A stretch of DNA of 52,575 nt from Methanobacteriota archaeon (GTDB taxonomy: Archaea; Halobacteriota; Syntropharchaeia; JAUWIL01), in NCBI GenBank assembly GCA_030605385.1, contig JAUWIL010000001.1, forward strand, positions 1 through 52,575. Direction: 5' to 3'. Both the position numbers and the translations under genes were made by a program. The stretch's first letter is position 1. Each line of letters starts with the position of its first letter. Of the stretch, positions 2,832 to 44,076 are shown piece by piece. The notes under the pieces are model-generated. The model was not told the DNA's origin. It saw only the letters and a list, made by a program, of their open reading frames with translations, and made no database searches.

Positions 2832-3314
2832 ATGCCATACACAGTTTTTCTAAGCCATTGCACGAGTCCCGAGGATATGAAATATGTGAATTGGTTCGAT
2901 TCTACACTTAGAAATCAATGTATTGGGTGCTATGTTGCTGAATGGTATCGAGAGCCAAACAACCTTATAACAGACAAAATAAAAAACGCAATTAATGATA
3001 GCCAATGCGCTCTAGTATTATGGACGAAAAAAGGAAGAGGATCCCAATTCGTCAATCAAGAAGTAGGTTATGCTGAAGATAAAAAACTAATAATACCTCT
3101 TGTAGAAAAGGGAGTTCCATTAGGAGGGTTCCTTTATGGAAGGGATTGTATTGAATTTGAAAGAAACAATCCAACAGGAGCATTAAATAGTACCGTTGAA
3201 TATATCAATCAACTTAAGCTTGCCAAAGAGCAACAGGATATGGCAACGGGCATGGTTACTCTTCTCATTAGCCTTTTTACACTCGGAGGTCTACTTGCTG
3301 CAGCATCAAGGTAA
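2832..3314 (+). CDS. TIR-like domain protein with C-terminal transmembrane helix
   Basis: The N-terminus YTVFLSHCTSPED, then SQCALVLWTKKG...FVNQEVGYA...KLIIPLV, matches the TIR/DUF1863 layout (strand-SH start, conserved W/E helix). The last ~25 aa (GMVTLLISLFTLGGLLAAA) are hydrophobic. GGAGGTGA RBS lies 8 nt upstream. Confidence 0.6.
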   Translation: MPYTVFLSHCTSPEDMKYVNWFDSTLRNQCIGCYVAEWYREPNNLITDKIKNAINDSQCALVLWTKKGRGSQFVNQEVGYAEDKKLIIPLVEKGVPLGGFLYGRDCIEFERNNPTGALNSTVEYINQLKLAKEQQDMATGMVTLLISLFTLGGLLAAASR

Positions 3315-3326
3315 GAAACCTTCTTC

Positions 3327-3593
3327 CTAATACTTATTTTTACAGTATTGCTCTATTTGGTTCAACATCCCCTCGCTACCCGCAACGACCTTAATGTCTC
3401 GCAAGTCCTCCACTATCTTTTCAAAGACCTTGCATTTTCCTTTGAGGTGGGCGAGAGGGTGAAGATAAAAATCGACCCGGAGGGAGAAAGACTGATCGTT
3501 GAGAAACGGTACTCGTTTTGTCTCTCTTTTGTCTCTCTGCACTCTATTAAAGATTGTCAGAGGGTGCGACTCAGATAAAGTTAACTTTGTCAT
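3327..3593 (-). CDS. Hypothetical protein, last gene of a four-gene minus-strand operon
   Basis: ATG start with a GAGG RBS. It overlaps the stop of the upstream gene by 23 nt. No recognisable domain. Confidence 0.4.
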   Translation of the reverse strand: MTKLTLSESHPLTIFNRVQRDKRETKRVPFLNDQSFSLRVDFYLHPLAHLKGKCKVFEKIVEDLRDIKVVAGSEGMLNQIEQYCKNKY

Positions 3594-4401
3594 CTTTTAC
3601 CGCCTCTAGTTTATCCTCCCATATGTTATACTGGGTCATGTATTTCTCCCTCCTCTCGGCTAATCTTGTATCTAATTGAGTGGATTGTACGAACTCCTCT
3701 ATTTCGTTTGCCATCCTTCTTATCGTATCTATATCGCTTTTTATTTCCTCGCATTCCCTTATTTCCAATAGTTCTTTCTCGAATCTAGGAAAGATATCTT
3801 TAATGTAAATATGGCTATGTTTTTCCCCCAATATTGATCTTGTTAGTTTTGGGACGCCATCTCTTTTTAACCATTGTTTGCCATCTTTCATTCCAAATTC
3901 CGCTTCAAATTTGGGGATGTATCGTTCAAGTTCCTCGGAAGTCTCTATCCACCCTTCAACTTTTTCTTTGATATCCTTTTCTACTTCTCCTAGGTTAGAG
4001 TTATATTCTCCAACCTGTTTTCGGTATTCTGCTACGTCCTCAACCAGCTCCTTATGTCTTTTAATAAAATCTTTTTCAGCACCCGTATCGCCTTTTAAAC
4101 TCGGCCCCCAATATCTTAAAGAATCTATATTCCCACTCTTTATTTCAGATATAGTTTCCCCATTCATATATAGAGTTCTCATGATGGGGTCTATTATCTT
4201 GGCTATCGCGATTACTACACTGTCTCTTTCTCTGTCTTTACGTAGTTCATCTACCTGCTCACTTACCTTTTTGACACACACCCAAGTTATTATTGCTAAG
4301 AGTGCTGTTGCAACTGCAGTGACTGCTGCTGCGAGATTATTTGTTATTCCCTCTACCGCCATCACTACTATTTCTTCTGCTACCATTACCACTGTTTGCA
4401 A
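3571..4401 (-). CDS. Membrane-anchored helical/coiled-coil protein, unknown function
   Basis: N-terminal hydrophobic helix (AAAVTAVATALLAIITWVCV), followed by about 230 aa rich in E/K with heptad-like character. No known catalytic motif seen. Confidence 0.55.
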   Translation of the reverse strand: MQTVVMVAEEIVVMAVEGITNNLAAAVTAVATALLAIITWVCVKKVSEQVDELRKDRERDSVVIAIAKIIDPIMRTLYMNGETISEIKSGNIDSLRYWGPSLKGDTGAEKDFIKRHKELVEDVAEYRKQVGEYNSNLGEVEKDIKEKVEGWIETSEELERYIPKFEAEFGMKDGKQWLKRDGVPKLTRSILGEKHSHIYIKDIFPRFEKELLEIRECEEIKSDIDTIRRMANEIEEFVQSTQLDTRLAERREKYMTQYNIWEDKLEAVKDDKVNFI

Positions 4402-4461
4402 CCCTCCTATCTATAACAGGAACAGTTGTCAGCCAAATGAAAGGGCTGAACGTCTAAACTC

Positions 4462-4977
4462 CTAGTTCCTCCCTCTCTCTTTTGCAATAGCTTCTTGTAT
4501 CATTCTTTTAACCCTATCTTCATCCTGATTAATATCATCTTCATTGAACCACAGAACCTTCCACCCCCTCTCATTTAGTGCGTTCTCCTTCCCCGCATCT
4601 CTTTCTTTTGCATGCCAGTAGTCAGCGCCAGGCTCTATAGCAACTTTTTCGTTTACAAATGCGAAGTCGATCCAATATCTTGAAACATTGTACTGCTTTT
4701 CGTAATCCTCATGTTCTTTGAAGCACAGTTCGTTTAGATATTGCTCAGTCCTTTTTTCCAAGTCTGTGTCTTTTTTTGATGGCGGCACTACTTCTCGTTC
4801 AAAACGAACTTCATCTACTACAAAATTTAGTTCACAGTCTTGACAAGTTACTATGAAAGGAGGCTTCTGCTTAAGATAAAGGTTAAAGATGTTATAATAT
4901 CTCATACATTTTGGACATTTTGTCCACAGGTTCGTCCCACCGCCTATGTACGCAATACTTTTCATCATCTCTACCAT
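4462..4977 (-). CDS. Zinc-ribbon plus DUF559 (Vsr-like endonuclease fold) protein
   Basis: CPKC...CQDC zinc ribbon at the N-terminus. The C-terminus YWIDFAFVNEKVAIEPGADYWH...RDAGKENALNERGWKVLWFNEDDI matches the DUF559 pattern (Y.vDF...IE.DG..H...D..R...L...G..vlRf). Confidence 0.6.
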   Translation of the reverse strand: MVEMMKSIAYIGGGTNLWTKCPKCMRYYNIFNLYLKQKPPFIVTCQDCELNFVVDEVRFEREVVPPSKKDTDLEKRTEQYLNELCFKEHEDYEKQYNVSRYWIDFAFVNEKVAIEPGADYWHAKERDAGKENALNERGWKVLWFNEDDINQDEDRVKRMIQEAIAKERGRN

Positions 4978-4978
4978 A

Positions 4979-5521
4979 TTACCGCAGCTCCAACAATTCT
5001 ATCCCATATTTTTCCAATGTGGACAGCAACTCTGGATCTCTCTGCTTGCAGATTATCAGCTTCTGTATCTCGTTGACAGGATAGTTTTCTTTAACAAGAA
5101 CTTCGTAACTCAGCACTTGCCCGATTGCTTCGAAATTCAGTTTATCTTTGATTTCCGCTAAAACAATATTCTTATCCTTTATCATGTTAAGGAATCCTCT
5201 TTCAATATCTTCATCAGGAGACTTAGATCTCTTCCTGAATTTCACTATTCTTACATTATAAGAATCAGGAGTTTGAGCGCCAGTTTTTCCTTCAGGAATA
5301 AATATAGCATCAACTCTTTTTATTTCAGTTGACACGGTCTCACTCTCAAACACAGGTTTAACATGTACTTCTGCATAAATAGTTCCCCTAATTTCAGGAT
5401 CTTCTAACATCTTTTTATAATATTTATGCAACAATATGTCTTCTTTCCCCTTTGTCTTATTAGGTGGCCAAGGATCAGTATATGTTCCCATCACCAGGCC
5501 TACTGCTGACTTTTTAGCCAT
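4979..5521 (-). CDS. Putative PD-(D/E)xK nuclease-fold protein
   Basis: ORF 4979..5563. Start set to the ATG at 5521, which has a GGTGAT RBS 6 nt upstream. VDAIFIP ... VLAEIKDK gives a D...E-x-K arrangement. One nt separates its stop from the next gene's start. Confidence 0.45.
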   Translation of the reverse strand: MAKKSAVGLVMGTYTDPWPPNKTKGKEDILLHKYYKKMLEDPEIRGTIYAEVHVKPVFESETVSTEIKRVDAIFIPEGKTGAQTPDSYNVRIVKFRKRSKSPDEDIERGFLNMIKDKNIVLAEIKDKLNFEAIGQVLSYEVLVKENYPVNEIQKLIICKQRDPELLSTLEKYGIELLELR

Positions 5522-5625
5522 GTTCTTATCACCTTGCCATACTAACTTAACTATCAGGTGCAACCAACTTAAATGTACTTCTAGACATTTCTATACGCTT
5601 TCATGCTCCCATCAGAATAACAGCT

Positions 5626-5665
5626 CACGTTATGTTTATGTGTGAGTGATAGCATAAGAATAATG
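5626..5665 (+). promoter_or_regulatory. Copy 2 of the same motif, in the spacer between the minus-strand operon and the PIN gene
   Basis: CACGTTATGTTTATGTGTGAGTGATAGCATAAGAATAATG. The first 23 nt are identical to copy 1. Confidence 0.4.
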
Positions 5666-5822
5666 ATAGCTTTGATCTCAGGAAGATTGAAGTTCAAGCA
5701 TGAAGGTGTGTAAGCAAAATAGATTTCGTATGTCGTACCAAGATGATAGAATATATGGCATTAATGTCTGGTATGCCTAAGTTAGGCGACACACATATAT
5801 GTGAAGTAAACACGTAGGGATT

Positions 5823-6293
5823 ATGATGAAACGGAAGTTTAGAGTATACATAGACACGTCGGTCATCGGGGGATATTTAGACGAGGAGTTTAAAGATGCT
5901 TCAACGATGCTTGTTGGAAGATTTAAGAGAGGGGAGCTTGGAGCAGTAATCTCAGAGATCACCAAACTTGAATTGAAAAAAGCACCCAGCGATGTGCAGG
6001 GTGTGCTTAAAGAAATACCAGAAGAAAATATAGAGTATGTTGAACTAACCGATGAAGCAACAACCTTGGCTAAGGGATACGTATCTGACGGTGTATTGGA
6101 TGAAAACAAAATTGCAGATGCACAGCATATAGCCATCGCTACAGTTCATAATGTAGATCTGATTGTGAGTTGGAATTTTAAACACATAGTCAACATTAAT
6201 AAAATCAGAGGCTTCAATGCGGTAAACTTGAAAATGGGCTATCCACTAATAGATATAAGAAGCCCTCAGGAGGTGATATCCTATGAAGAATAA
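5823..6293 (+). CDS. PIN-domain protein (VapC-like toxin)
   Basis: YIDTSVIGG (first acidic residue), ISEITKLE, ADAQHIAIA and the SWNFKH C-terminal motif follow the PIN-domain spacing. Confidence 0.6.
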   Translation: MMKRKFRVYIDTSVIGGYLDEEFKDASTMLVGRFKRGELGAVISEITKLELKKAPSDVQGVLKEIPEENIEYVELTDEATTLAKGYVSDGVLDENKIADAQHIAIATVHNVDLIVSWNFKHIVNINKIRGFNAVNLKMGYPLIDIRSPQEVISYEE

Positions 6294-6414
6294 AAAATTT
6301 GATGCAGTGAAAATGATGAGGGAGATAAGGGACGAATTAAGTAAAAAATTTATACACATGACTTTTGAAGAGCAGAAAAAGTTCATCAAGAAAAGTCTAG
6401 AGCAGACAGCATAG
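6283..6414 (+). CDS. Small 43-aa protein overlapping the PIN gene stop, possible cognate antitoxin or partner
   Basis: ATG at 6283 overlaps the PIN gene 3' end by 11 nt. MKNKKFDAVKMMREIRDELSKKFIHMTFEEQKKFIKKSLEQTA is helical and charged. Below the ORF-track cutoff. Confidence 0.35.
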   Translation: MKNKKFDAVKMMREIRDELSKKFIHMTFEEQKKFIKKSLEQTA

Positions 6415-6482
6415 GGGGCATACACGTCGCATGAAAGGCACCGGTAGCATATATGGGCATGTGAAGGGCAGGATAATGATTT

Positions 6483-6881
6483 ATGTCACAAAAAGGTTGG
6501 TATTATAATCCCCCCAAGCCAAAGGTTCCTGAGGTAGAAAAAAACAGGATTAAGAGCATTTGTGGTGAGTATATTAGGACTGTTTTAAAACCTAAACATA
6601 TAATCCCCAGCCCCTCACATAAAGAGTATTATCATATTGAAGATATGTTTACAAAATGGTGGCGGAATTACTTTTATTTTTATGCCAAATACCATTATAC
6701 AGATCCAAATGCAATTAAGGAGTTTTTAGATCATGGCTTTGCCAGATTGGAATATGTTAATGAACACAGGTTCAATTTATCGTATATGAGACATACAGGA
6801 CAATGGTGGGAGGTTTTTTCAGAATTATCATTGGAAGAATGCTTAGACACCATCGAAGAAATGCCACATTTTAATCCATAG
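6483..6881 (+). CDS. Hypothetical protein, DUF3024-like
   Basis: Clean 132-aa ORF. The W/Y-rich core and the C-terminal GFARLEY...W.L.YMRHTGQWWEV...L.E.L..IEE resemble DUF3024 as I recall it. Not verified. Confidence 0.4.
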   Translation: MSQKGWYYNPPKPKVPEVEKNRIKSICGEYIRTVLKPKHIIPSPSHKEYYHIEDMFTKWWRNYFYFYAKYHYTDPNAIKEFLDHGFARLEYVNEHRFNLSYMRHTGQWWEVFSELSLEECLDTIEEMPHFNP

Positions 6882-7053
6882 AAAAGGCTAAATAAAGCAT
6901 ACTATTTACATGAAAGCTAACGGACTCGCATAACAGGTGGGCATGCGGTTCGCTGCATTCACCAAAATGCTCGGCTTGATCACATAATGCTCTCCTCTTC
7001 GTATTGAATATTACCGATGTTACAGGCTGTTGTAATAAGTGTAATGTTGGTGA

Positions 7054-7200
7054 ACTATAACGGTTAACCCGTTTAAGCCGGGATCTGGTTTGTATCCGCC
7101 TTATTTTGCTGGTCGTGTGAGGGAGATTGAAGTCTGGGCAGGTGGATGTATTACGCAATTGGCTTCATGGCACTTCTTTGAAAATGATGATTGTACTTAA
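7054..7200 (+). pseudogene. N-terminal fragment of an archaeal-type AAA/STAND ATPase (no start codon, truncated after ~45 aa)
   Basis: The frame reads TITVNPFKPGSGLYPPYFAGRVREIEVW... The NPF.PG....PP.F.GRE.E motif is the usual N-terminus of the archaeal ATPase family. There is no P-loop downstream and the frame stops at 7198-7200. Confidence 0.3.
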
Positions 7201-7277
7201 ACTCATGTTGTTCAATTGGGTTTAATCGAGAAACATTTAAACACAATTATATTCATTATTATAACTGAGGTGATAAA

Positions 7278-7421
7278 ATGGAAAAAAGACAAGTATGTTT
7301 TACCATTGAGGAGGATATAGTGAAAAACATGGAAGAACTAAGGGACAAAACCGGCGTGCCAGTGAGCAAGCAAATTGAGTTAGCTCTGAAAGGATACAAA
7401 ATCGAAAAAGTAGAGCAATAG
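7278..7421 (+). CDS. Ribbon-helix-helix small protein, 47 aa
   Basis: MEKRQVCFTIEEDIVKNMEELRDKTGVPVSKQIELALKGYKIEKVEQ shows the strand-helix-helix pattern. GAGGTGA RBS upstream. Confidence 0.5.
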   Translation: MEKRQVCFTIEEDIVKNMEELRDKTGVPVSKQIELALKGYKIEKVEQ

Positions 7422-7518
7422 TAAATTTCGGAGCATTTTAATGACGTATATTGAATTGAGTTTGGGTATCGTTATTGGTATTATTTTATCTTTAGTAGTG
7501 GATGTCGCCACAATACGC

Positions 7519-7863
7519 CTATATCTTAACCGATATCGTATCTTGATCTTCAAGAAAAACCTCTGCCACTGAATGGTTCGCCAGATCCAGTGCGTCTGCA
7601 ATTGCTTTTGGTATGGTTATCATGTATGAGTTGCCTCTTTTCGAGATTTTCACTTTCTCGTGTTTCTTAGCTTGCAGGAACAGGTAGGCTTTTTCCAGCG
7701 CTCCTGGGCTGAGCAGCTCATACTTGCACTTGGCGCATTTCCAACCACGTACTTTCAATCCTTCCACATCGATCTCGGTGCGCTCACACAGGTTGTTGCA
7801 CTGAGGGCACTTTAATCCCCCCTCTTCAAGATTCTTTAGTTCATCTATTTTTGATTCCGACAT
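7519..7863 (-). CDS. Antitoxin-like protein: YgiT/MqsA-type zinc ribbon fused to an AbrB/SpoVT domain
   Basis: CPQC...CAKC zinc ribbon. The C-terminal VKISKRGNSYMITIPKAIADALDL...VAEVFLEDQDTISVKI is a SpoVT/AbrB swapped-hairpin signature. Confidence 0.6.
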   Translation of the reverse strand: MSESKIDELKNLEEGGLKCPQCNNLCERTEIDVEGLKVRGWKCAKCKYELLSPGALEKAYLFLQAKKHEKVKISKRGNSYMITIPKAIADALDLANHSVAEVFLEDQDTISVKI

Positions 7864-8110
7864 GTTTTATTAACCACACTTCCTCGTCCAGAGAGTATGA
7901 GTAGCTGGGCACGAGCTTGGTGAAGACGATCTGATTCTTCCGATCGATTGCCCGGCCAACCTCTCCCTTCGTCATTCTTGCATCCTCGTAGTCGTATCCA
8001 TCCTCAATTATCTCCTGTAGTTTCCAGGGCGAGATGTCATGCCTCACCATATCTTTCAGCGCGTCTTTGCTGGGAATGCATAGTTTGCTTCTGAAGCGAA
8101 CATCAAACAT
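7841..8110 (-). CDS. Small toxin-like protein (possibly DUF4258/RelE-fold), upstream partner of the AbrB antitoxin
   Basis: Overlaps the antitoxin gene by 23 nt. The ATG at 8110 gives MFDVRF... An in-frame TTG at 8158 would add 16 aa encoded by the family A repeat. Family assignment is tentative. Confidence 0.45.
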   Translation of the reverse strand: MFDVRFRSKLCIPSKDALKDMVRHDISPWKLQEIIEDGYDYEDARMTKGEVGRAIDRKNQIVFTKLVPSYSYSLDEEVWLIKHVGIKNR

Positions 8111-8162
8111 GTCTGAAAACCTTTGGTTTTCATACTGTTGCGGAACTGCGTTCCGCAAACAT
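8105..8162 (+). repeat. Family A double-hairpin unit, solo copy
   Basis: AAACATGT CTGAAAACC TTT GGTTTTCA TACTGTT GCGGAAC TGC GTTCCGC AAACAT. Confidence 0.85.
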
Positions 8163-8317
8163 CTCTGGCTCCTGTATAAACAGTATGTTTAAACACCCTA
8201 TTAAAACTTTTTGTTACCAACGTTGTTTTTATCTTCCTTATACTTCAACCGCTATGTTATTCTTTCTCAAGCAACCTTGCTGTATTATAAAGTACAACTT
8301 TGTAATACAGAGAAAAA

Positions 8318-8669
8318 TCATTTGATTTTTCTCGCTGTTTCCTCGCTTATCTCTTGCTGCTCGCTGGTTGCGCCGGTCTCTATTCTGCGCTCCCTGGCCA
8401 TCCTGATCACGTCATACACGCTCTTGTTCAGCATGACTGCAGCATGTCTAAAACACTGCGTGTTTTATACGGTTGAAAAACTACGTTTTTCAAACACTGC
8501 TGAGAGATATCCTGCCGCGCGCGTATAAGTCCATCACGTACTCTGCAGCCCCCATGTAAAAAAGCTGTCTCATTGTAGTGCTTTTGTCCACGTACATCTC
8601 CCCGGTGCGCAGCTCCACCAGTGGAAGAATGTCCTCCGGTATTCGTAGTGGATATGATACCATGCCCAT
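8318..8669 (-). pseudogene. UPF0175-family (antitoxin-like) gene split by a family A hairpin unit
   Basis: The 5' part, 8669..8490, encodes MGMVSYPLRIPEDILPLVEL...AAEYVMDLYARGRISLSSV and stops inside the repeat. The 3' part, 8443..8318, encodes AAVMLNKSVYDVIRMARERRIE... Joining the two flanks gives an in-frame ...GRISLSSAAVMLNKS... typical of UPF0175. Confidence 0.6.
8444..8497 (+). mobile_element. Family A double-hairpin unit inserted inside a coding sequence
   Basis: CATGT CTAAAACAC TGC GTGTTTTAT ACGGTT GAAAAAC TAC GTTTTTC AAACA, flanked by CA on both sides. Confidence 0.75.
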
Positions 8670-9777: not shown

Positions 9778-9840
9778 AGCACCAATACTCCAACTGGGGT
9801 GTCATTCTGTATCTATTTTTCTGCACGTATTTGCACACTG

Positions 9841-9895
9841 CTTGCGGAGCAAAGCTCCGCAACCGTATAAAACACGCAGTGTTTTATACATGTAT
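9841..9895 (-). repeat. Family A double-hairpin unit, solo copy in inverted orientation
   Basis: The reverse complement reads ACATGT ATAAAACAC TGC GTGTTTTAT ACGGTT GCGGAGC TTT GCTCCGC AAG. Confidence 0.8.
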
Positions 9896-10729: not shown

Positions 10730-10744
10730 ATTTTTTATTTGCCT

Positions 10745-10869
10745 GTCGAACTTTCAGTTCGACTGTCTTGCGAAAGATCTGATTTCGCAAAGTCTTGCAA
10801 AACATAGTTTTGCGGGATATCTGAAGGCTCTGCCTTCAGAGATATCTTGCAGAACGAAGTTTCGCGGGA
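10745..10869 (+). repeat. Family B hairpin array (5 hairpins of 19-27 nt)
   Basis: GTCGAACT/AGTTCGAC. Then TCTTGCGAAA..TTTCGCAAAG, TCTTGCAAAAC..GTTTTGCGGGA, TATCTGAAGG..CCTTCAGAGATA and TCTTGCAGAAC..GTTTCGCGGGA. Confidence 0.85.
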
Positions 10870-10963
10870 CATCGTCATCCGCCCGGAATCCAGATGTTTC
10901 AGATAAAATGATATTATGAGAAAAGCTGTAGTTATTATCTTTGGTGAATGGTTTGGGAGCTTT

Positions 10964-13705: not shown

Positions 13706-14404
13706 TCAAATCTCCACCTTCAGATCCTGCGAAACGGAGTTTCGCGGGACAGGCGAAAGCTTTGCTTTCGACAAGGTCCTGCGAATGTCAAGCTCGTTAT
13801 GTACTACTATCATGCAGTGGTCCACATGCAGTGATTTTTGTCCGACGCTTACATTTCTTGCACAGGCATCTGCAAGGAGCCGCTCATATTCTTCACCAAG
13901 TCCCATATGGTCGCCAAGCACGAAAATCAGTTTATCACCCATCTCAATTTCTCTTATCCACTCGCCTGTTTCAACAAGATATATTATATCTGTGCCGTCA
14001 CCGCACCCTTCCAGCACATCCTTCATGTCCCCTTTACGTATGTATACGCCAGGAGTTGACAATATTTCATGCTCGGTGATGTTCTGCCTTCCAAGCGCCT
14101 TGCTTATCAGCGAGGCTGCGCTTCTTTCATCCGGGCTGAGATATCTCAGCTCACTGCCTTCAAAGCGTATCAGGATCGGGGGATTTGGCTCTCCGAGCAG
14201 CAGAAGCCAGAGTCTTGTATCTCTCCGTATATCGTGCGACAGAAAGAACGCTGAATTGACGCACCTGCATACTATATCCATCCTGCCGGCTGAACCTGGG
14301 AGGTCTTTCAGGCTGAAACCGCCGGTCGTAGTAGCTGTGCTGCTAACCACCAGAAATTCCCTTCTAACGCCCTCTCCCCTAACACCCATGTTGATCTCAC
14401 TCAC
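13706..14404 (-). CDS. trmY: tRNA (pseudouridine54-N1)-methyltransferase TrmY (SPOUT)
   Basis: GRMDIVCRCVNSAFFLSHDIRRD...LSPDERSAASLI matches TrmY/DUF358. The last ~28 codons are encoded by family B repeat sequence. Confidence 0.7.
   Translation of the reverse strand: MSEINMGVRGEGVRREFLVVSSTATTTGGFSLKDLPGSAGRMDIVCRCVNSAFFLSHDIRRDTRLWLLLLGEPNPPILIRFEGSELRYLSPDERSAASLISKALGRQNITEHEILSTPGVYIRKGDMKDVLEGCGDGTDIIYLVETGEWIREIEMGDKLIFVLGDHMGLGEEYERLLADACARNVSVGQKSLHVDHCMIVVHNELDIRRTLSKAKLSPVPRNSVSQDLKVEI
13725..13790 (+). repeat. Family B hairpin array (2 to 3 hairpins) overlapping the trmY 3' end
   Basis: TCCTGCGAAAC GGA GTTTCGCGGGA, then CAGGCGAAAGC TTT GCTTTCGACAAG, then a truncated GTCCTGCGAA. 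Confidence 0.8.
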
Positions 14405-30651: not shown

Positions 30652-30767
30652 TCTTGCGAAGCACAGCTTCGCGGGATATCTGAAGGGTGCGCCTTCAGAA
30701 ATATCTTGCGAAATCGGAGATTTCGCGAGACAACCGAATACGAAGTATTCGTTAAGTCTTGCGGGGG
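30652..30767 (+). repeat. Family B hairpin array (4 hairpins plus a truncated fifth), abutting the pyrF stop
   Basis: TCTTGCGAAGC..GCTTCGCGGGA, TATCTGAAGG..CCTTCAGAAATA, TCTTGCGAAATC..GATTTCGCGAGA, CAACCGAATAC..GTATTCGTTAAG, then TCTTGCGGGGG. Confidence 0.85.
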
Positions 30768-31427: not shown

Positions 31428-31460
31428 TTTCCTTCCTCATCTAATTCATATTTTTTACAT

Positions 31461-31838
31461 GTATGAAATGCGAAGCATGTCCGAAAACCTTAGGTTTTCG
31501 TACTGTTGCGGAACTTCGTTCCGCAAACATGTCTGGAAGCGAAGCTTCCATACGGTTACAGAGCTCCGCTCTGTAAACATGTTTAAAAATCTTTGATTTT
31601 TAAACGGTTGAAAAACTACGTTTTTCAAACATGTCTAAAAGTGGAACTTTTAGACTGTTATGGAACTTTGTTCCATAAACATGTCCGAAAACCTTAGGTT
31701 TTCGTACTGTTGCGGAACTGCGTTCTGTAAACATGTATGAAAAGCTCTGCGTTTCATACGGTTATGGAGCTGTGCTCCATAAACATGTTTAAAAATCTTT
31801 GATTTTTAAACGGTTGCAAAACTACGTTTTGCAAACAT
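31461..31838 (+). repeat. Family A double-hairpin array: one truncated plus seven complete 50-52 nt units
   Basis: Units start at 31476, 31528, 31578, 31630, 31680, 31732 and 31784. Every junction reads AAACATGT. Confidence 0.9.
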
Positions 31839-31873
31839 TCCAATCTCTCACTTTTTACATTCCAATCTCTCAC
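31836..31873. repeat. Direct repeat CATTCCAATCTCTCAC x2 separated by TTTTTA (part of a 22-nt tandem duplication)
   Basis: Read directly. It covers the dys stop codon. Confidence 0.9.
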
Positions 31874-32834
31874 GGGTAGCAGCAATTATTATCGGCAGCG
31901 CTATGGTGATGTCCGCATATACCGTTACGTAGCTGCCGCTCCCCTTCACCTTACCCCACGACTTGGCCTCATCGAGTGTGGCACCTGAGAGTCCGCCTGT
32001 CTCTGGACGGTCCATTGTAATCTGTATACTATAATCCATGCCCCCTCTCGGTATGGCTATCATACTCTGAAGTATGTAGTTCTTCGGAAGACCGCCGCCA
32101 AGTATGAATGCTCCAAGGCTCCTTGCCTCATAGCATATGTCCATGAACTCCTTCATATCCTCAAAAACGTCAACGTTTAAACTTAGGGTCTGTTTGTGAA
32201 GCCATGCCTGGAGCCCTATTGCCGAATCGGCTATGCCGGGGCAGTATATGGGCACTTCCATCTCATAGCATGCCCCGAGGATCGAGTTCTTGCAGTCTAT
32301 ATTTTCACCCAGTGCGGTTATCAGCTCACGTATGCTAAGGGTTCTGCCCTCCAGACCTGCAAAGGCGTTCAGCATGTGCTCCTCAAAGGTCGTGAAGTGT
32401 TCTTCGGGCAGAAAAACATCGAATATGCGGTTTATCTGCTTATCCCTAAGTTCAATGTCATTTACCGCCGCAGTGCCGTGATAATGATGTCCGCCAAGTG
32501 ATTCTATGATGTCGTGCACGATGTTCGCACCAGTGGTAACCAGTACATCCACATACCCATCATACACCATGTCAGATAGTATCCTGCGCATCCCTGCCGG
32601 TACCAGCGCTCCTGCCAGCCCGAGAAACTTGGTGGTATCGCTGAGCATCATCATCTCCATTATATCCACAGCTTCAGCGATTCTTCCTGCGCCGAATGCG
32701 CATCCGCCCAGCTCATTGACAAGTTCGTTAACGGTCATTGGGGTCCTGATCTGCGCGTGACGTATGATCAGACTGCTGTCGAGCATACCTTCAGGGCCGC
32801 CGCCAGGATTTCGTTCATCTCGCTCTTCGTTCAT
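31848..32834 (-). CDS. dys: Deoxyhypusine synthase
   Basis: Start set to MNEERDERNP at the ATG at 32834. The upstream extension looks non-coding. Conserved regions: TGANIVHD, GGGLPKNY, and the SWGK lysine region. Confidence 0.85.
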   Translation of the reverse strand: MNEERDERNPGGGPEGMLDSSLIIRHAQIRTPMTVNELVNELGGCAFGAGRIAEAVDIMEMMMLSDTTKFLGLAGALVPAGMRRILSDMVYDGYVDVLVTTGANIVHDIIESLGGHHYHGTAAVNDIELRDKQINRIFDVFLPEEHFTTFEEHMLNAFAGLEGRTLSIRELITALGENIDCKNSILGACYEMEVPIYCPGIADSAIGLQAWLHKQTLSLNVDVFEDMKEFMDICYEARSLGAFILGGGLPKNYILQSMIAIPRGGMDYSIQITMDRPETGGLSGATLDEAKSWGKVKGSGSYVTVYADITIALPIIIAATRERLECKK

Positions 32835-33059
32835 AGTTGTAGTTAGGATTATTGCACTATGTATAATATGAATATTGCGGAAACAGAGTTTTCGCCGGAA
32901 ATTGTGTATGCAGTTTGATGTCGGTTGCATCAAGGGAGACGCGATTGAGGGATATAACCAAATATTCATAAATACTTAAGTGGATGACGATTATACCTCT
33001 ACCAGAAAAAACATGCCCCTCTAACATTCTCTCTAACACCTACTGTATGTGGTGCTGTT

Positions 33060-39967: not shown

Positions 39968-39995
39968 AATATGGGTGTAGCAATATGGGTGTAGC
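39968..39995. repeat. Perfect tandem duplication, 2 x 14 nt (AATATGGGTGTAGC) covering the cofE start codon
   Basis: Read directly. Confidence 0.9.
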
Positions 39996-40743
39996 CGAGA
40001 TTCGCTTATTTGCTCCTGAGGAAGTCCCTCTGATAAAAGAGGGGGACGACATAGTCGATATCATACTCGACGCAGTGGAACTCAAGAGTCATGATATAGT
40101 AGTAATTGCATCAACCATAATGTCCAAGTCTGAGGGTAGAGCTATTTCCCTCGATAGTATCAGACCGTGCGCCAGAGCGGTTGAGCTTGCATCGAACCTG
40201 AACGAAGACCCGAGATTCATGGAGCTTGTTCTGCAGAACAGCCGCAGAATAATAGTCGAGCGCCCCATACTTCTGACCGAAATGCCGAACGGGTACATAT
40301 GCATCAAGGCAGGTATAGACAGGTCCAACGTCAAGGATGGTAAGGCACTACTGCTCCCCGCTGACCCTGATAAGAGCGCGAAAGGTATACACGACCGGAT
40401 TCTCGAGCGCACCGGAAAGAGGGTGAGCATAATAATATCAGACACATCAGGCAGAGCCTTCCGCATGGGTCAGACCGCAGTAGCCGTAGGGTGTGCGGGC
40501 ATTGGTCCGCTGCTGAACTGGGTCGGAATGAAGGACCTTTACGGGCACGAGCTTGAAATAACAGAGGAAGCCGTGGCTGATGAACTTGCAGGCGCATCAA
40601 ACCTGCTCACAGGCGAGGGCAACGGCGGTAAACCCATAGTAGTGGTGCGCGGATTAGACCTGTACTCGGATTCACATGGTGTTGCGGCACTACACCGCAA
40701 AGACGAGGATGATGTAATAAAGAGGGCTTTGCTGCATGTTTAA
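39985..40743 (+). CDS. cofE: Coenzyme F420-0:L-glutamate ligase
   Basis: IKEGDDIVDII..., IKAGIDRSN, IISDTSGRAFRMGQTAVAVG. The stop codon lies inside the first family A repeat unit. Confidence 0.85.
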   Translation: MGVAEIRLFAPEEVPLIKEGDDIVDIILDAVELKSHDIVVIASTIMSKSEGRAISLDSIRPCARAVELASNLNEDPRFMELVLQNSRRIIVERPILLTEMPNGYICIKAGIDRSNVKDGKALLLPADPDKSAKGIHDRILERTGKRVSIIISDTSGRAFRMGQTAVAVGCAGIGPLLNWVGMKDLYGHELEITEEAVADELAGASNLLTGEGNGGKPIVVVRGLDLYSDSHGVAALHRKDEDDVIKRALLHV

Positions 40744-40966
40744 AACGCAAGGCATTTTAGACGGTTGTGAAATCTCTGATTTCACAAACATGTCTGAAAA
40801 AGCAACGCTTTTTCATACGGTTACAGAATCTTCGATTCTGCAAACATGTTTAAAATGCAAGGCATGTTCGAAAACCTTAGGTTTTCGTACTGTTGTAGAA
40901 CGTAGTTCTACAAACATGCCTAAAACACTACGTGTTTTATGCTGTTGCAAAACGTAGTTTTGCAAA
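40735..40966 (+). repeat. Family A double-hairpin array: four complete units and one truncated unit
   Basis: Units start at 40735, 40789, 40845 (18-nt stub), 40863 and 40915. Confidence 0.9.
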
Positions 40967-41007
40967 CAGGAGAAAAGATGAAGTAAAAAAAAGTGGTGAT
41001 AATATTC

Positions 41008-41541
41008 ATGAGCGGCGCCAGAGCCAGACGTCTTGAAAGCGACTATAAGCGCATGTGCGAACTCGATAAAAGCAGTAATTTCATCTCTTTTGCCTGCGAG
41101 GGGGACCCGCCAGAGAAATATGCAGTCACCTTCAGATGCAAGGGCATTATGAAGCGCGACGACGGCAGTCTAGCGAATTCCGTCCGCCATACTCTCGAGA
41201 TCTACCTGACGATGGATTATCCGATGCGCCAGCCCCAGTTGAAGTGGATGACTCCCGTATTTCACCCGAACATACTGGGCGCCACGCACCCATACAACCC
41301 GGGTACCGTGTGCCTCGGAAGCTGGGTGCCTTCCATGTTTCTCGACGACCTCTGCATAAAGCTGGGCGAGATGATTCAGTACAAAAATTTCAGCCTGAAC
41401 AGCCCACTGGATGCCGAGGCTGCGGTATGGGCAAACAAGTTCAAGCTTTCGATGCCAGTCGATGATCGACCTCTGCTGTTAGGCAGCGCCGAAAAATGCG
41501 ATGGTGAGGGCGATGATGAGTTTGACATAATAGTAGAGTAA
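41008..41541 (+). CDS. Ubiquitin-conjugating enzyme E2 (UBC fold)-like protein
   Basis: N-terminal ARRLESDYKRM helix, ...PEKYAVTF..., YPMRQPQLKWMTPVFHPNI......GTVCLGSWVPS: an HPN triad, a catalytic-position Cys and the following W.P, in the canonical E2 order. Confidence 0.7.
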   Translation: MSGARARRLESDYKRMCELDKSSNFISFACEGDPPEKYAVTFRCKGIMKRDDGSLANSVRHTLEIYLTMDYPMRQPQLKWMTPVFHPNILGATHPYNPGTVCLGSWVPSMFLDDLCIKLGEMIQYKNFSLNSPLDAEAAVWANKFKLSMPVDDRPLLLGSAEKCDGEGDDEFDIIVE

Positions 41542-41911
41542 CGGGTAATTATTTGATATGATGTTTGATATGGTAATGGAGTAACGAGTAATTAATAAAA
41601 TGATGAAGTGAGCCAATAGAGTAGGCTGTATGAGTGGAATGAGCGCCATAAGCAGAGTTCATGATGCCTTCCGTAATCTTTTTTAAATATTTATTGCAAA
41701 TGAGAACCAATATAAGTGAATAGTTTGGTAATTGATGGTCTGGATAGTATGGTAATGGTAATTGGTGGTTTGGTATTGTCTGGTATTATTTATGCTGTGG
41801 GGTATGCAGTTGATTAATCTGACCTGCAAGCGTATGCAATTGATTGACCTGACATGCAACTGATCGAGTGCTATGTGCTTGTAAGGGCAAAAATAAAGGT
41901 GAAACGCAACT

Positions 41912-42802
41912 ATGGCTAAAAATACAGGGGAGTTCAAGGGAACCGATAAATACTATCTTTCACCCGAGCTTGGCGACATAGTCAACATAGCGCTTGCAAT
42001 GGAGAAACCTCTGCTCCTGATGGGTGAGGCCGGAACGGGTAAGACGCAGCTGGCTTTCGAAGTGGCGAGAGCGCTTAACATGCCCATAGAGGTTGCCAGA
42101 TGCAAATCTACAATGAAAGGGGAGGAGCTGTGCTATACCCACGACTCTGTACTGCGCCTGTACGACTCGCGGTTTGGGTCAGGGGAGACGGGACGCGTGG
42201 TTGATAATTTTGATGATTACTCGATATACGGTCCCATAGGCAGGGCATTCATTTCAGAGGAGCGGTGCGTACTGCTGCTCGACGAGATTGATAAGACCGA
42301 GTCAGACGTGCAGGACAATCTCCTTGACGTGCTGGAAGAATGTGAGTTTACCATACGCGAGGTGAACCGCACCATCAGGGCAAAACACCGTCCATTCATA
42401 TGTATAACAAGCAACGCCAAACGCGAGCTCTCTGACCCGTTCCTGCGAAGGTGCTACTGCCATTACATCGACTTTCCCACGGTCGAGCAGATGAAAAAGA
42501 TTATCAGGCTTCACTACCCGGTGGTGAACGAGGGAGTTGTAAACACCGCCATAAGCCTGTTCTACGACCTTCGGGACCGCGGGTTCGAGAAGCCGCCAGC
42601 AAGCAGCGAGCTTCTGGATTGGATAGGTGCGCTCGATAGATCCGGAATTCGTGCAGATAAGCTTGCCTCTGCCAAGAATGACCCCAAAAAACTGCCGTTC
42701 TCTGGCGTACTGCTGAAGCGGGCTGGCGATATCAAGATGTTTCGCGAAGGGCGCTCTGGAAGTGCCTCTGATGGCTACCGCCGTATGCGATATAGATATT
42801 AA
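41912..42802 (+). CDS. MoxR/CoxD-like AAA+ ATPase
   Basis: Walker A GEAGTGKT, Walker B LLLDEIDK, sensor and arginine region SNA..ELSDPFLRRC. Confidence 0.8.
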   Translation: MAKNTGEFKGTDKYYLSPELGDIVNIALAMEKPLLLMGEAGTGKTQLAFEVARALNMPIEVARCKSTMKGEELCYTHDSVLRLYDSRFGSGETGRVVDNFDDYSIYGPIGRAFISEERCVLLLDEIDKTESDVQDNLLDVLEECEFTIREVNRTIRAKHRPFICITSNAKRELSDPFLRRCYCHYIDFPTVEQMKKIIRLHYPVVNEGVVNTAISLFYDLRDRGFEKPPASSELLDWIGALDRSGIRADKLASAKNDPKKLPFSGVLLKRAGDIKMFREGRSGSASDGYRRMRYRY

Positions 42803-42864
42803 TGGTATGGGCATTAAATATTGAATCAATTTTAATTTAGACCGGTTGCTGTTGAGGCGGTTCC

Positions 42865-44076
42865 ATGCTGTTCACTGATTTCTTCTACACAATGAAAGAG
42901 TACGGCGTACCCATTACGACGCAGTATATCCTCGAATTTCGGGAGGCTGTGGAAAAGGGACTTGCCAGCAATCTGGAAGAGCTGTACCTGCTGCTCCGCC
43001 TCATATGCGTGAAGCGCATAGAACACATGGATAGCTTTGAAAGAGCGTTCGCAAAATACTTCTACAATCTGGAGCTGCCAGCACCCGAGGATACTACGAA
43101 CCTCGGCAAACTTCTCGAGAACAAGCCGTTTCAGGATTGGCTGAACCGGGAACTCAAGAAGGGCAACCTCACGTGGGAAGATATTCACTACAGGATGCCT
43201 CCAGATGAACTATTCAAGCGCTTCATCGAGACCGTGATGAAACAGATGGATGCGCATCACGGCGGTGATAAGTGGATCGGAACGAACGGAAGTTCGCCAT
43301 TCGGTCATTCCGGTACCAGTCCATACGGCATCCGCGTGTACGGAGATTCAGCCTATCAATCCGCAATAAAGATGATAGGTGAGAGGCGGTATGCAGATTA
43401 TTCAAGCAAGGCTGAACTGCGCGCAGAAAACGTGCGCCAGGTACTTGGAACCCTGAAGAATATGGTACCTGCAGGACCCGTGACTGAACTCGATCTGGAC
43501 GAGACCATATACCGCACCGCCCGCAACGGGGGTGAGATAGAGATGGTTTTCACGGGTGAACTGCGTGATAAAATCAAGGTAGCCCTGCTTATGGATAATG
43601 GCGGTTATTCGATGGACCCATATATGAGACTCATAAAGCTGGTTTTCTCAAAAACGGCAGACCGCTTCAAGGAGTTAAGCACATATTATTTCCACAACTG
43701 CATATATGGTACCGTGTTCACAGATGCCGCGCGGAGCAAGCCATATCCCATGGAGAAGTTTCTCACGCATAATGCCGAGACGCGCGTTATCATCATCGGC
43801 GATGCGTCAATGGCTCCCGAGGAGCTGATGATGCCAAACGGCGCGATAGATTATGGTGTTGATGACGGGGAGCCGGGACGGGTGTGGCTTGAGCGCATGC
43901 GGGATAGATTCAGGTACTGCGTGTGGCTCAACCCGAAACTAAAAGAAGATTGGTACATGACGCACGGCAGCCATACAATTGACATTATCGGCAGGATCAT
44001 ACATATGGAAGACCTCACTCTTGAGGGCATAAAGAACGCTGTAGAATATTTGAATGCCCAGAAGCAGGCGGTATGA
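42865..44076 (+). CDS. VWA domain-containing CoxE-like protein
   Basis: N-terminus MLFTDFFYTMKEYGVPITTQYILEF, typical of the CoxE-like family. C-terminal VWA-like region (LLMDNGGYSMDPY...IIIGDA). Canonical partner position after MoxR. Confidence 0.65.
   Translation: MLFTDFFYTMKEYGVPITTQYILEFREAVEKGLASNLEELYLLLRLICVKRIEHMDSFERAFAKYFYNLELPAPEDTTNLGKLLENKPFQDWLNRELKKGNLTWEDIHYRMPPDELFKRFIETVMKQMDAHHGGDKWIGTNGSSPFGHSGTSPYGIRVYGDSAYQSAIKMIGERRYADYSSKAELRAENVRQVLGTLKNMVPAGPVTELDLDETIYRTARNGGEIEMVFTGELRDKIKVALLMDNGGYSMDPYMRLIKLVFSKTADRFKELSTYYFHNCIYGTVFTDAARSKPYPMEKFLTHNAETRVIIIGDASMAPEELMMPNGAIDYGVDDGEPGRVWLERMRDRFRYCVWLNPKLKEDWYMTHGSHTIDIIGRIIHMEDLTLEGIKNAVEYLNAQKQAV

Follow-up and report, generated by a model that had tools for sequence, protein, structure and literature searches.

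An array of alternating palindromes overlaps the 3' end of cofE in a divergent ANME-1-like archaeon

REP sequences are extragenic, imperfect palindromes of 20-40 bp, present in more than 100 copies per genome and carrying a GTAG or CGTC tag at one end. REP, BIME and REPIN elements are mobilised by RAYT (TnpA-REP), an IS200-like Y1 HUH transposase whose gene is usually flanked by REPs. MITEs have terminal inverted repeats and a target-site duplication of fixed length and are related to a known transposon, and the double-hairpin elements of organelles (repetitive hairpin or palindromic repeats of fungal, sponge and Volvox mtDNA) are pairs of neighbouring short hairpins that have spread into intergenic DNA and gene ends, with compensated stem variation and no known mobilising mechanism. 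BIMEs are defined as clustered palindromes that are regularly spaced and alternate in orientation, and a role in transcription termination has been suggested for bacterial REP/BIME (PMC2817692). A contribution to mRNA stabilisation has been hypothesized as well (PMC3733652). The literature examined describes REP/BIME/REPIN from bacteria only; no report of REP/BIME-built elements in archaea was found, and a survey from 2018, covering 172 genomes of archaea, recorded TnpA of the IS200 type only and none of the REP-associated subclasses (PMC6006769). In the archaeon Haloquadratum walsbyi, PATEs are 52-bp, terminal-only derivatives of IS605-type transposons with two near-terminal palindromes, and they may be mobilisable (PMC3119063). 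A literature search on intergenic repeats of ANME-1/Methanophagales found nothing relevant.

The repeat family described here, family A, was found in a stretch of 52,575 nt (the window, to which all positions refer). Its gene content is that of an ordinary archaeal chromosome (class I LysRS, Pus10, KsgA, NrpR, XPD, GatD, DnaG, SecDF, TrkAH, DHS, PyrF, ApgM and CofE), and its lineage is a divergent, Syntropharchaeia/ANME-1-like one: the best non-self LysRS is 65% identical and the best named one ('Ca. Syntropharchaeia archaeon') 61%. The reading that we favour, with a probability of roughly 60%, is that the array behind cofE is a cluster formed by a non-coding repeat of the DNA level, specific to its lineage and analogous, in archaea, to REP/BIME/REPIN or to terminal-only PATEs of the IS605 type, and that insertion of this non-autonomous, selfish or mobile palindromic element would incidentally have rebuilt the 3' end of cofE. 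The features of the locus are:

39985-40743, plus strand: cofE, F420-0:gamma-glutamyl ligase (PF01996, E 1.4e-77)
40735-40968, plus strand: family A array, 234 bases, with four doublet units (eight alternating palindromic half-elements) and one 18-nt stub, ending ...GCAAACA
40735-40788, plus strand: unit v1, 54 nt, block split at CATG
40789-40844, plus strand: unit v2, 56 nt, block split at CATG
40845-40862, plus strand: 18-nt stub, CATGTTTAAAATGCAAGG
40863-40914, plus strand: unit v3, 52 nt, block split at CATG
40915-40966, plus strand: unit v4, followed by CA up to 40968
40735-62+, 40764-92-, 40789-818+, 40820-48-, 40863-90+, 40892-918-, 40915-42+, 40944-70-: matches of the half-element model (R2) within the array
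40979-40981, plus strand: in-frame TGA, a hypothetical ancestral stop that would end cofE (...ALLQEKR*) if TGT...AAACA (40737-40968) were missing
41008-41541, plus strand: E2/UBC-like gene (PF00179), with the likely ATG at 41008 behind GGTGAT (40995-41000); the ORF lister placed the start at GTG 40993

An earlier note, made from the letters alone, had described four full units and an 18-nt stub at 40.7 kb, in the same orientation as an array at 31.4 kb. A direct reading of the sequence bears this out, with both this array and the larger one at 31458-31837 in plus orientation. The stub corresponds to the 5' two-thirds of a half-element resembling that of unit 1 and is joined to a CGAAAACC-type unit. 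A covariance model built on the 52-nt unit (R1) gives the four units scores of 54-70 bits (E 4e-10 to 1e-13), and the region folds with z of -7.1 on the plus and -8.6 on the minus strand. A T4-5 run had been ascribed to each hairpin of this array; on direct reading it is present in 5 of the 8. Tandem Repeats Finder did not detect the array because its copies are less than 70% alike. A 73-aa ORF inside it (40736-40957) was rejected as coding, the 52-nt period not being a multiple of 3.

The gene cofE ends CTG CAT GTT TAA, and CAT GTT together with the stop TAA (40735-40743) lies inside the head of the first unit, CATGTTTAA, which is the canonical head of the aligned family A units. The present His-Val-stop codons of cofE are element sequence, as the earlier note had proposed. 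Its prediction for the uninterrupted gene was likewise reproduced: deleting 40737-40968 in silico gives ...CTG CAG GAG AAA AGA TGA, i.e. ALLQEKR* with the TGA at 40979-40981. The hypothetical empty-site junction reads ...GCTTTGCTGCA/GGAGAAAAGATGA (also written ...CTGCA/GGAGAAAAGATGA), and this removal of the insert suggests that an ancestral CofE may have ended ...LQEKR*. Past the conserved ...DVIRRAL, the tails of CofE homologues have 2-5 variable residues (KSRSA, KNY, KLM, ISR and others), and since they are so short and variable, both LHV* and LQEKR* are compatible with them. None of the 120 listed homologues ends in ...LLHV, and a database search for an identical CofE sequence returned no record. 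In the databases, the nearest relatives lie at 57-65% protein identity: 57% for the best CofE homologue, which is not syntenic, 61% for the closest E2-like protein and 65% for the closest LysRS. Without the inserts, the spacers would measure 26 nt between cofE and the E2-like gene and about 40 nt between the deoxyhypusine synthase gene (dhs) and pyrF at the larger array, both ordinary gene spacers. The effect on cofE itself is probably minor, because the change is limited to the non-conserved C-terminal tail.

The internal structure of the units was resolved by cutting them at the variable base of ACNGTT and comparing the first half with the reverse complement of the second. The two halves are versions of one element of about 27 nt, colinear and with a mean column identity of 67%. 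Each half-element is a palindrome of 26-30 nt that runs CATGT, 0-2 nt, a stem of 8-11 bp with a triloop, and AC; in the alignment of the halves, its form is CATGT-NN-stem-triloop-stem-NN-AC. A unit (52-56 nt) is composed of two diverged half-element subtypes, arranged tail-to-tail about a central base (AC-N-GT), and successive doublets abut head-to-head and share CATG, so that the junction AAACATGTTT is itself palindromic. In every array, matches of the R2 model alternate between the strands about every 26 nt, with heads overlapping by 4 nt. At E<0.01, R2 detects no isolated singlet half-element in the window; every solo locus is a doublet. The invariant bases are those of the palindromic junctions (CATG and GTT/AAC), while the stems vary. 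At the left ends, all five loci read CA/TGT, with TACA, AACA, TACA, AGCA and TGCA as left flanks; the right ends (n=5) are AAACA, once AAGCA, and the next base is T, G, T, C or G.

Variation in the stems is compensated. In 15 aligned units, 93% of cells pair, compared with 31-50% in slid controls; both-sided changes affect 14 of 21 stem pairs, and G-U pairs occur in 3 cells. The mismatches have no strand bias (3 G.T and 2 A.C cells), folding is equally good on either strand, and single units treated as ssDNA have fold z values of -4.4 to -7.5. Near-exclusive Watson-Crick covariation combined with equal folding of the two strands is the signature to be expected of DNA palindromes, not of a strand-specific RNA. 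On the reverse strand of the arrays, R1 gives weak matches of 17-46 bits, as against 54-77 forward; the arrays are quasi-symmetric with a residual polarity.

An unfiltered search of the window with R1 placed family A at 5 loci in 52.6 kb, with 11 full units in the two arrays and 3 solo units, the latter being new relative to the earlier note. The loci outside the cofE region are:

31458-31837, plus strand: larger family A array, a stub and 7 units, flanked by the deoxyhypusine synthase stop (31848, minus strand) and the pyrF start (31427, minus strand), antisense to both genes
8108-8161, plus strand: solo doublet, 77.2 bits; the CAT of its head is a possible minus-strand ATG of a small ORF (7841-8110)
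8443-8496, plus strand: solo doublet, 69.6 bits; its tail TCAAAC gives the GTT TGA (Val-stop) of a minus-strand ORF (8490-8669)
9839-9892, minus strand: solo doublet, 66.1 bits, between the start of nrpR (9777, minus strand) and the stop of ksgA (9935, minus strand), sense to both

Together with three units of another contig, JAPWVK010000149.1, the 11 array and 3 solo units form a set of 17 full units with R1 E-values of 4e-10 to 4e-15. The window holds 28 half-elements, and each copy is either intergenic or in contact with the end of a gene. The pattern AAACATGTNTNNAA..ACNGTT has 7 matches in the window against 0.00 expected, a second family A pattern has 5 against 0.00, and hairpins with an 8-bp stem and a triloop number 26 against 0.4. 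The GTT TGA contributed by the 8443 unit parallels the GTT TAA at cofE. All loci lie in spacers of co-directional genes, and the element occurs in either orientation relative to those genes: the 40.7-kb array is sense to cofE and the E2-like gene (both on the plus strand), and the elements at 8108 and 8443 are antisense to the two small minus-strand ORFs. The earlier suggestion that orientation is not tied to transcription holds in so far as two loci are sense (the 40.7-kb array and the minus-oriented 9.8-kb solo unit) and three to four antisense, but orientation is itself a weak property here, because the array is quasi-symmetric and its palindromes alternate.

The distribution of the family was examined with a strict two-hairpin pattern in one genome per species. 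Among 185,579 species there was one real match, JAPWVK010000149.1, a contig of the Methanophagales (ANME-1) MAG SB_Co_68 (JAPWVK01), in which the array lies 3' of an unrelated membrane-protein gene and runs into the contig end. Its three-unit block is 89% identical to 31676-31838 and has different gene neighbours; the species may be the same as that of the window, and if so, the argument from a comparison between genomes shrinks to one within a genome. The 36 kb around the cofE and lysS homologues of the nearest relatives are free of family A copies and of 8-bp triloop hairpins, and BLAST searches of phage and plasmid collections gave no family A match. A single match in JGI metagenomes was set aside as chance, in eukaryote-like DNA, and three single matches in IMG/VR were also taken as chance, one of them having been inspected and found to be without hairpins. 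By these searches, family A is lineage-specific. No transposase of any kind, including Y1/HUH, was present among the 47 ORFs of the window that were scanned, and no IS605-type transposon (tnpA/tnpB) occurs in the window.

Comparison of the copies with each other is informative about how they spread. Mean identity is 66% between adjacent units, 71% between non-adjacent units of the same array and 72% between units at different loci. The best matches of units of the 40.7-kb array lie elsewhere: that of v3 at 31476 (87%), that of v4 in the 8443 solo unit (87%) and that of v2 in a unit from the other genome (80%). A 70-nt composite of the stub and the CGAAAACC-type unit, which opens the 31.4-kb array (31458-31527), is common to both arrays of the window. 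The larger array has a four-unit higher order, with u0 and u4 94% and u2 and u6 96% identical and a reported 102-nt period. First halves of the type TAAAACAC are paired with three different second halves, and identical stems occur with complementary loops (TAC and GTA), an indication that palindromes have recombined with one another or internally. The modules that the earlier note had seen in both arrays do recur, CGAAAACCTTAGGTTTTCGTACTGTT at 31482 and 31686 and GCAAAAC..GTTTTGC at 31816, the positions given previously having been one off. That the two arrays belong to one family is supported by these results, and so is the modular reassortment proposed before: half-elements recur in varied combinations and multi-unit blocks reappear elsewhere, as would be expected from either reassortment or copying. 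As judged from these relations, units and blocks were copied between loci rather than duplicated locally, since adjacent units are the least alike, blocks recur beside unrelated genes and the 70-nt composite is found in both arrays.

Family A shares with REP/BIME/REPIN the short, extragenic stem-loop palindromes with regular spacing and alternating orientation, the restriction to a species or lineage and the position between or after genes, and, as in REPINs, an inverted doublet is the apparent unit. It differs in its archaeal host, in its head CATG(T) with neither GTAG nor CGTC tag, in AT-rich stems that carry triloops, are much more diverged and show compensatory changes, in doublet heads that overlap by 4 nt and have no linkers, and in that no RAYT was seen among the 47 scanned ORFs of the window (52 kb). 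With PATEs it has in common an archaeal host, a non-coding length of about 52 bp that consists essentially of two near-terminal palindromes, heterogeneous copies and, putatively, insertion beside a short target oligonucleotide with no obvious target duplication. PATEs have no terminal inverted repeats and insert 3' of a specific 4-6-nt oligonucleotide, which they do not duplicate; the left flanks of family A all end in CA while the right flank is variable (n=5). Unlike the palindromes of PATEs, which are direct copies at unequal distances from the ends, the halves of family A stand in inverted orientation, have symmetric heads and, within the arrays, produce inverted termini of 7 nt; family A also forms long tandem arrays, and a parent IS605-type element with matching ends is not known. 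Like MITEs, family A copies are small, non-coding, interspersed and intergenic and have inverted termini (CATGTTT...AAACATG) inside arrays, but the right terminus is truncated (...AAACA) at each array end, a target duplication, if present, could be no more than CA, and no related transposase or IS is known. Finally, the double-hairpin elements of organelles resemble family A in their paired short hairpins, stem compensation and spread into gene ends; they differ in residing in organelles instead of an archaeal chromosome and in their unrelated sequences, and head-to-head ordered arrays are atypical of them. By analogy, family A works like REP/BIME or PATE, although membership in either is not established.

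Several familiar classes of repeat or structured sequence do not apply. In a CRISPR array, direct repeats that are identical to one another alternate with unique spacers of similar length, whereas family A has no spacers and its units abut and are variable. Integron attC sites were rejected for want of cassettes, and C/D-box or k-turn structures for want of a GA.AG k-turn. In the entire window, Rfam gave no match at the gathering threshold, and in the arrays only sub-threshold, chance look-alikes of miRNA and sRNA.

Mobility of the family and its insertion at cofE are inferred from the pattern of the ends, the distribution and the relations among copies. The spreading unit would be a doublet or a block of doublets, which would insert 3' of a short ...CA target either with no real target duplication or with a 2-bp duplication of CA. 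As the element ends in ...AACA, it would recreate its own target, and new copies would pile up head-to-tail as arrays; gap-free head-to-tail arrays of dissimilar neighbours would follow from such a self-recreated target, and any sub-array of the form TGT...ACA would be free to move as one block. At 40.7 kb the insertion would have fallen within the last codons of cofE, with the element head then giving His-Val-stop. The proposed mode of insertion and array growth resembles the single-strand 'peel-and-paste' chemistry of IS200/IS605, and also the terminal-only PATEs of Haloquadratum. A single-strand-DNA enzyme (HUH/Y1, IS200/IS605-like) acting in trans is a tentative guess at the mobiliser. Alternatively, the conserved CA could be a plain part of the element. 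The divergence of the stems, far above that typical of recently active MITE or REPIN families, could mean that these are old, selectively maintained structures.

A rival explanation is that the array is a selected cis-acting RNA element. Its hairpins between the cistrons would serve to end or attenuate transcription, with archaeal oligo-T signals, or would act in protecting or processing the cofE-E2 mRNA, and the repeats would be kept for that function. The arrays always lie between co-directional genes and form very stable structures on both strands, T4-5 runs follow the pattern given above (5 of 8 hairpins at 40.7 kb), and for bacterial REP/BIME a role in termination has been suggested (PMC2817692) and one in mRNA stabilisation hypothesized (PMC3733652). 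The explanation is nevertheless unlikely, given that the element stands in both orientations relative to genes, G-U pairs are nearly absent, mismatches are unbiased by strand (3 G.T and 2 A.C cells), no Rfam family was matched and family A likewise extends over the start and stop codons of small ORFs. The hairpins and T-runs probably do affect the cofE-E2 transcript, and these would likely be side effects and not the element's raison d'etre; we judge any RNA role to be secondary because there is no orientation or G-U bias.

The invariance of the junction palindromes beside variable stems, the symmetric covariation restricted to Watson-Crick pairs and the regular spacing of about 26 nt would also suit DNA-binding or cruciform sites of a host protein involved in chromosome organisation, supercoiling or regulation, functions that have been proposed for BIMEs, with CATG and the AC-N-GT junctions as recognition sequences. 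This is very unlikely in view of the absence of a candidate binding protein and of promoter enrichment. The operator of NrpR has GGAA..TTCC at N6 spacing; in family A, GGAA..TTCC is found in a minority of hairpins and at N5 or N7, and an NrpR operator was rejected on this ground. There is an equally slim chance that nothing was inserted. In that case cofE would already have ended in ...LLHV*, a hairpin present downstream of it would have been expanded into the array on the spot through slippage or unequal crossing-over, and the other loci would have become alike by gene conversion. The higher-order periodicity of the 31.4-kb array (u0/u4 94%, u2/u6 96%, 102-nt period) is in accord with such growth, and GTA and TAC loops on identical stems suggest recombination between arms. 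Against it, cofE finishes with 9 nt that are the canonical head of a unit, a coincidence very improbable in a gene end of independent origin. Neighbouring units also resemble each other least, three other sites carry solo doublets whose ends are identical, and the same blocks stand beside unrelated genes in JAPWVK010000149.1. The mobile, DNA-level palindromic element remains the reading that we prefer.

Taken alone, the second array and its rewriting of the cofE end are real and of modest importance, and it is the picture at the level of the family that is moderately interesting. We consider, tentatively, that family A may be the first archaeal system of the REPIN/BIME type. A single-strand-DNA enzyme (IS200/IS605-like or domesticated) would then act in trans on an inverted doublet of about 27-nt palindromes, which would insert 3' of ...CA and assemble into arrays by itself. 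If this were true, the multi-unit blocks shared among loci and genomes would be explained, and gene termini would be routinely remodelled (the cofE stop, the Val-stop at 8490 and the possible start at 8110). An archaeal family that shares the alternating-palindrome architecture, although its head motif is another and no transposase is known for it, would carry REP/BIME biology over to ANME-1-related archaea, and it would offer a clean case of an element end that recreates its own target. The arrays also have practical consequences: they interrupt the assembly of MAGs, the only other copy being located at the end of a contig, give rise to spurious ORFs (that at 40736-40957, for instance) and rewrite gene termini, which matters for the annotation of uncultured methane-cycling archaea.

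Besides forming arrays, the palindromic repeat family A (units of 52-56 nt, each a tail-to-tail doublet of two ~27-nt half-elements) was found as three solo doublets that were absent from the finding of the earlier note:
8108-8161, solo family A doublet
8443-8496, solo family A doublet
9839-9892, solo family A doublet

The Val-stop (GTT TGA) of the minus-strand ORF 8490-8669 comes from the doublet at 8443, and the doublet at 8108 contributes a possible ATG to ORF 7841-8110. The stretch separating these two doublets holds, at 8310-8340, a degenerate hairpin that resembles a half-element (GAGAAAAATCATTTGATTTTTCTC, then GCTGTT). The region 2832-8669 is a gene cluster resembling defence or toxin-antitoxin loci, which also includes DUF3024 and small ORFs:
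2832-3314, TIR-domain protein
4462-4977, DUF559/REase-like protein
5823-6293, PIN protein
7519-7863, MazE/AbrB-like Zn-ribbon protein

The end of the deoxyhypusine synthase gene also looks remodelled. Directly to the right of the 31.4-kb array (the larger family A array), a 17-nt direct repeat, ACATTCCAATCTCTCAC, is present in two copies 22 nt apart (31835-31873), and the stop codon of the gene (TGA, 31848-31850) lies within the array-proximal copy, the TGA of the other copy being out of frame. The ORF (31848-32969) encodes 373 aa with the Pfam DS domain beginning at residue 82; the preceding residues are either an N-terminal extension or the result of an upstream start taken by the ORF lister.

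Perfect tandem duplications (units of 11-18 nt, 2-3.5 copies) were identified at 11 positions in the window (3516, 21814, 22675, 29955, 35740, 38415, 39827, 39968, 44276, 44333 and 51593), compared with none in 20 shuffles, and 10 of them are intergenic or touch gene ends. At 39968-39995, the start-codon region of cofE is duplicated (AATATGGGTGTAGC x2). Two different imperfect tandem repeats, each with a 30-nt period and ~2 copies, fill the intergenic stretch (41726-41859) that separates the E2-like gene from the MoxR-like gene. The gene order across 41008-44076 is:
E2/UBC-like gene
41912-42802, MoxR-type AAA+ ATPase
42865-44076, 403-aa protein with no Pfam match

Only 45 database homologues of the E2-like protein were found (≤61% identity), one of them labelled Chloroflexota, and no E1, ubiquitin-like or JAB genes were noticed close to its gene.

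The window also carries a second hairpin-repeat family (B):
10742-10870, family B
13725-13785, family B
30652-30765, family B

As in family A, two triloop hairpins alternate (TCTTGCGAAnn..nnTTCGCGGGA and TATCTGAAGGn..nCCTTCAGAnATA). Family B occupies spacers other than those of family A, namely ksgA/DUF655 and one 3' of pyrF, and one of its stretches lies within a doubtful ORF.

The sole other family A array found is located at 2058-2294 of contig JAPWVK010000149.1, from a Methanophagales (ANME-1) MAG, and extends to the contig end. Its inner end, 8 nt past the stop codon of a gene for a 306-aa membrane protein, is cut off inside a hairpin loop. Arrays of the family A type probably fragment MAG assemblies.
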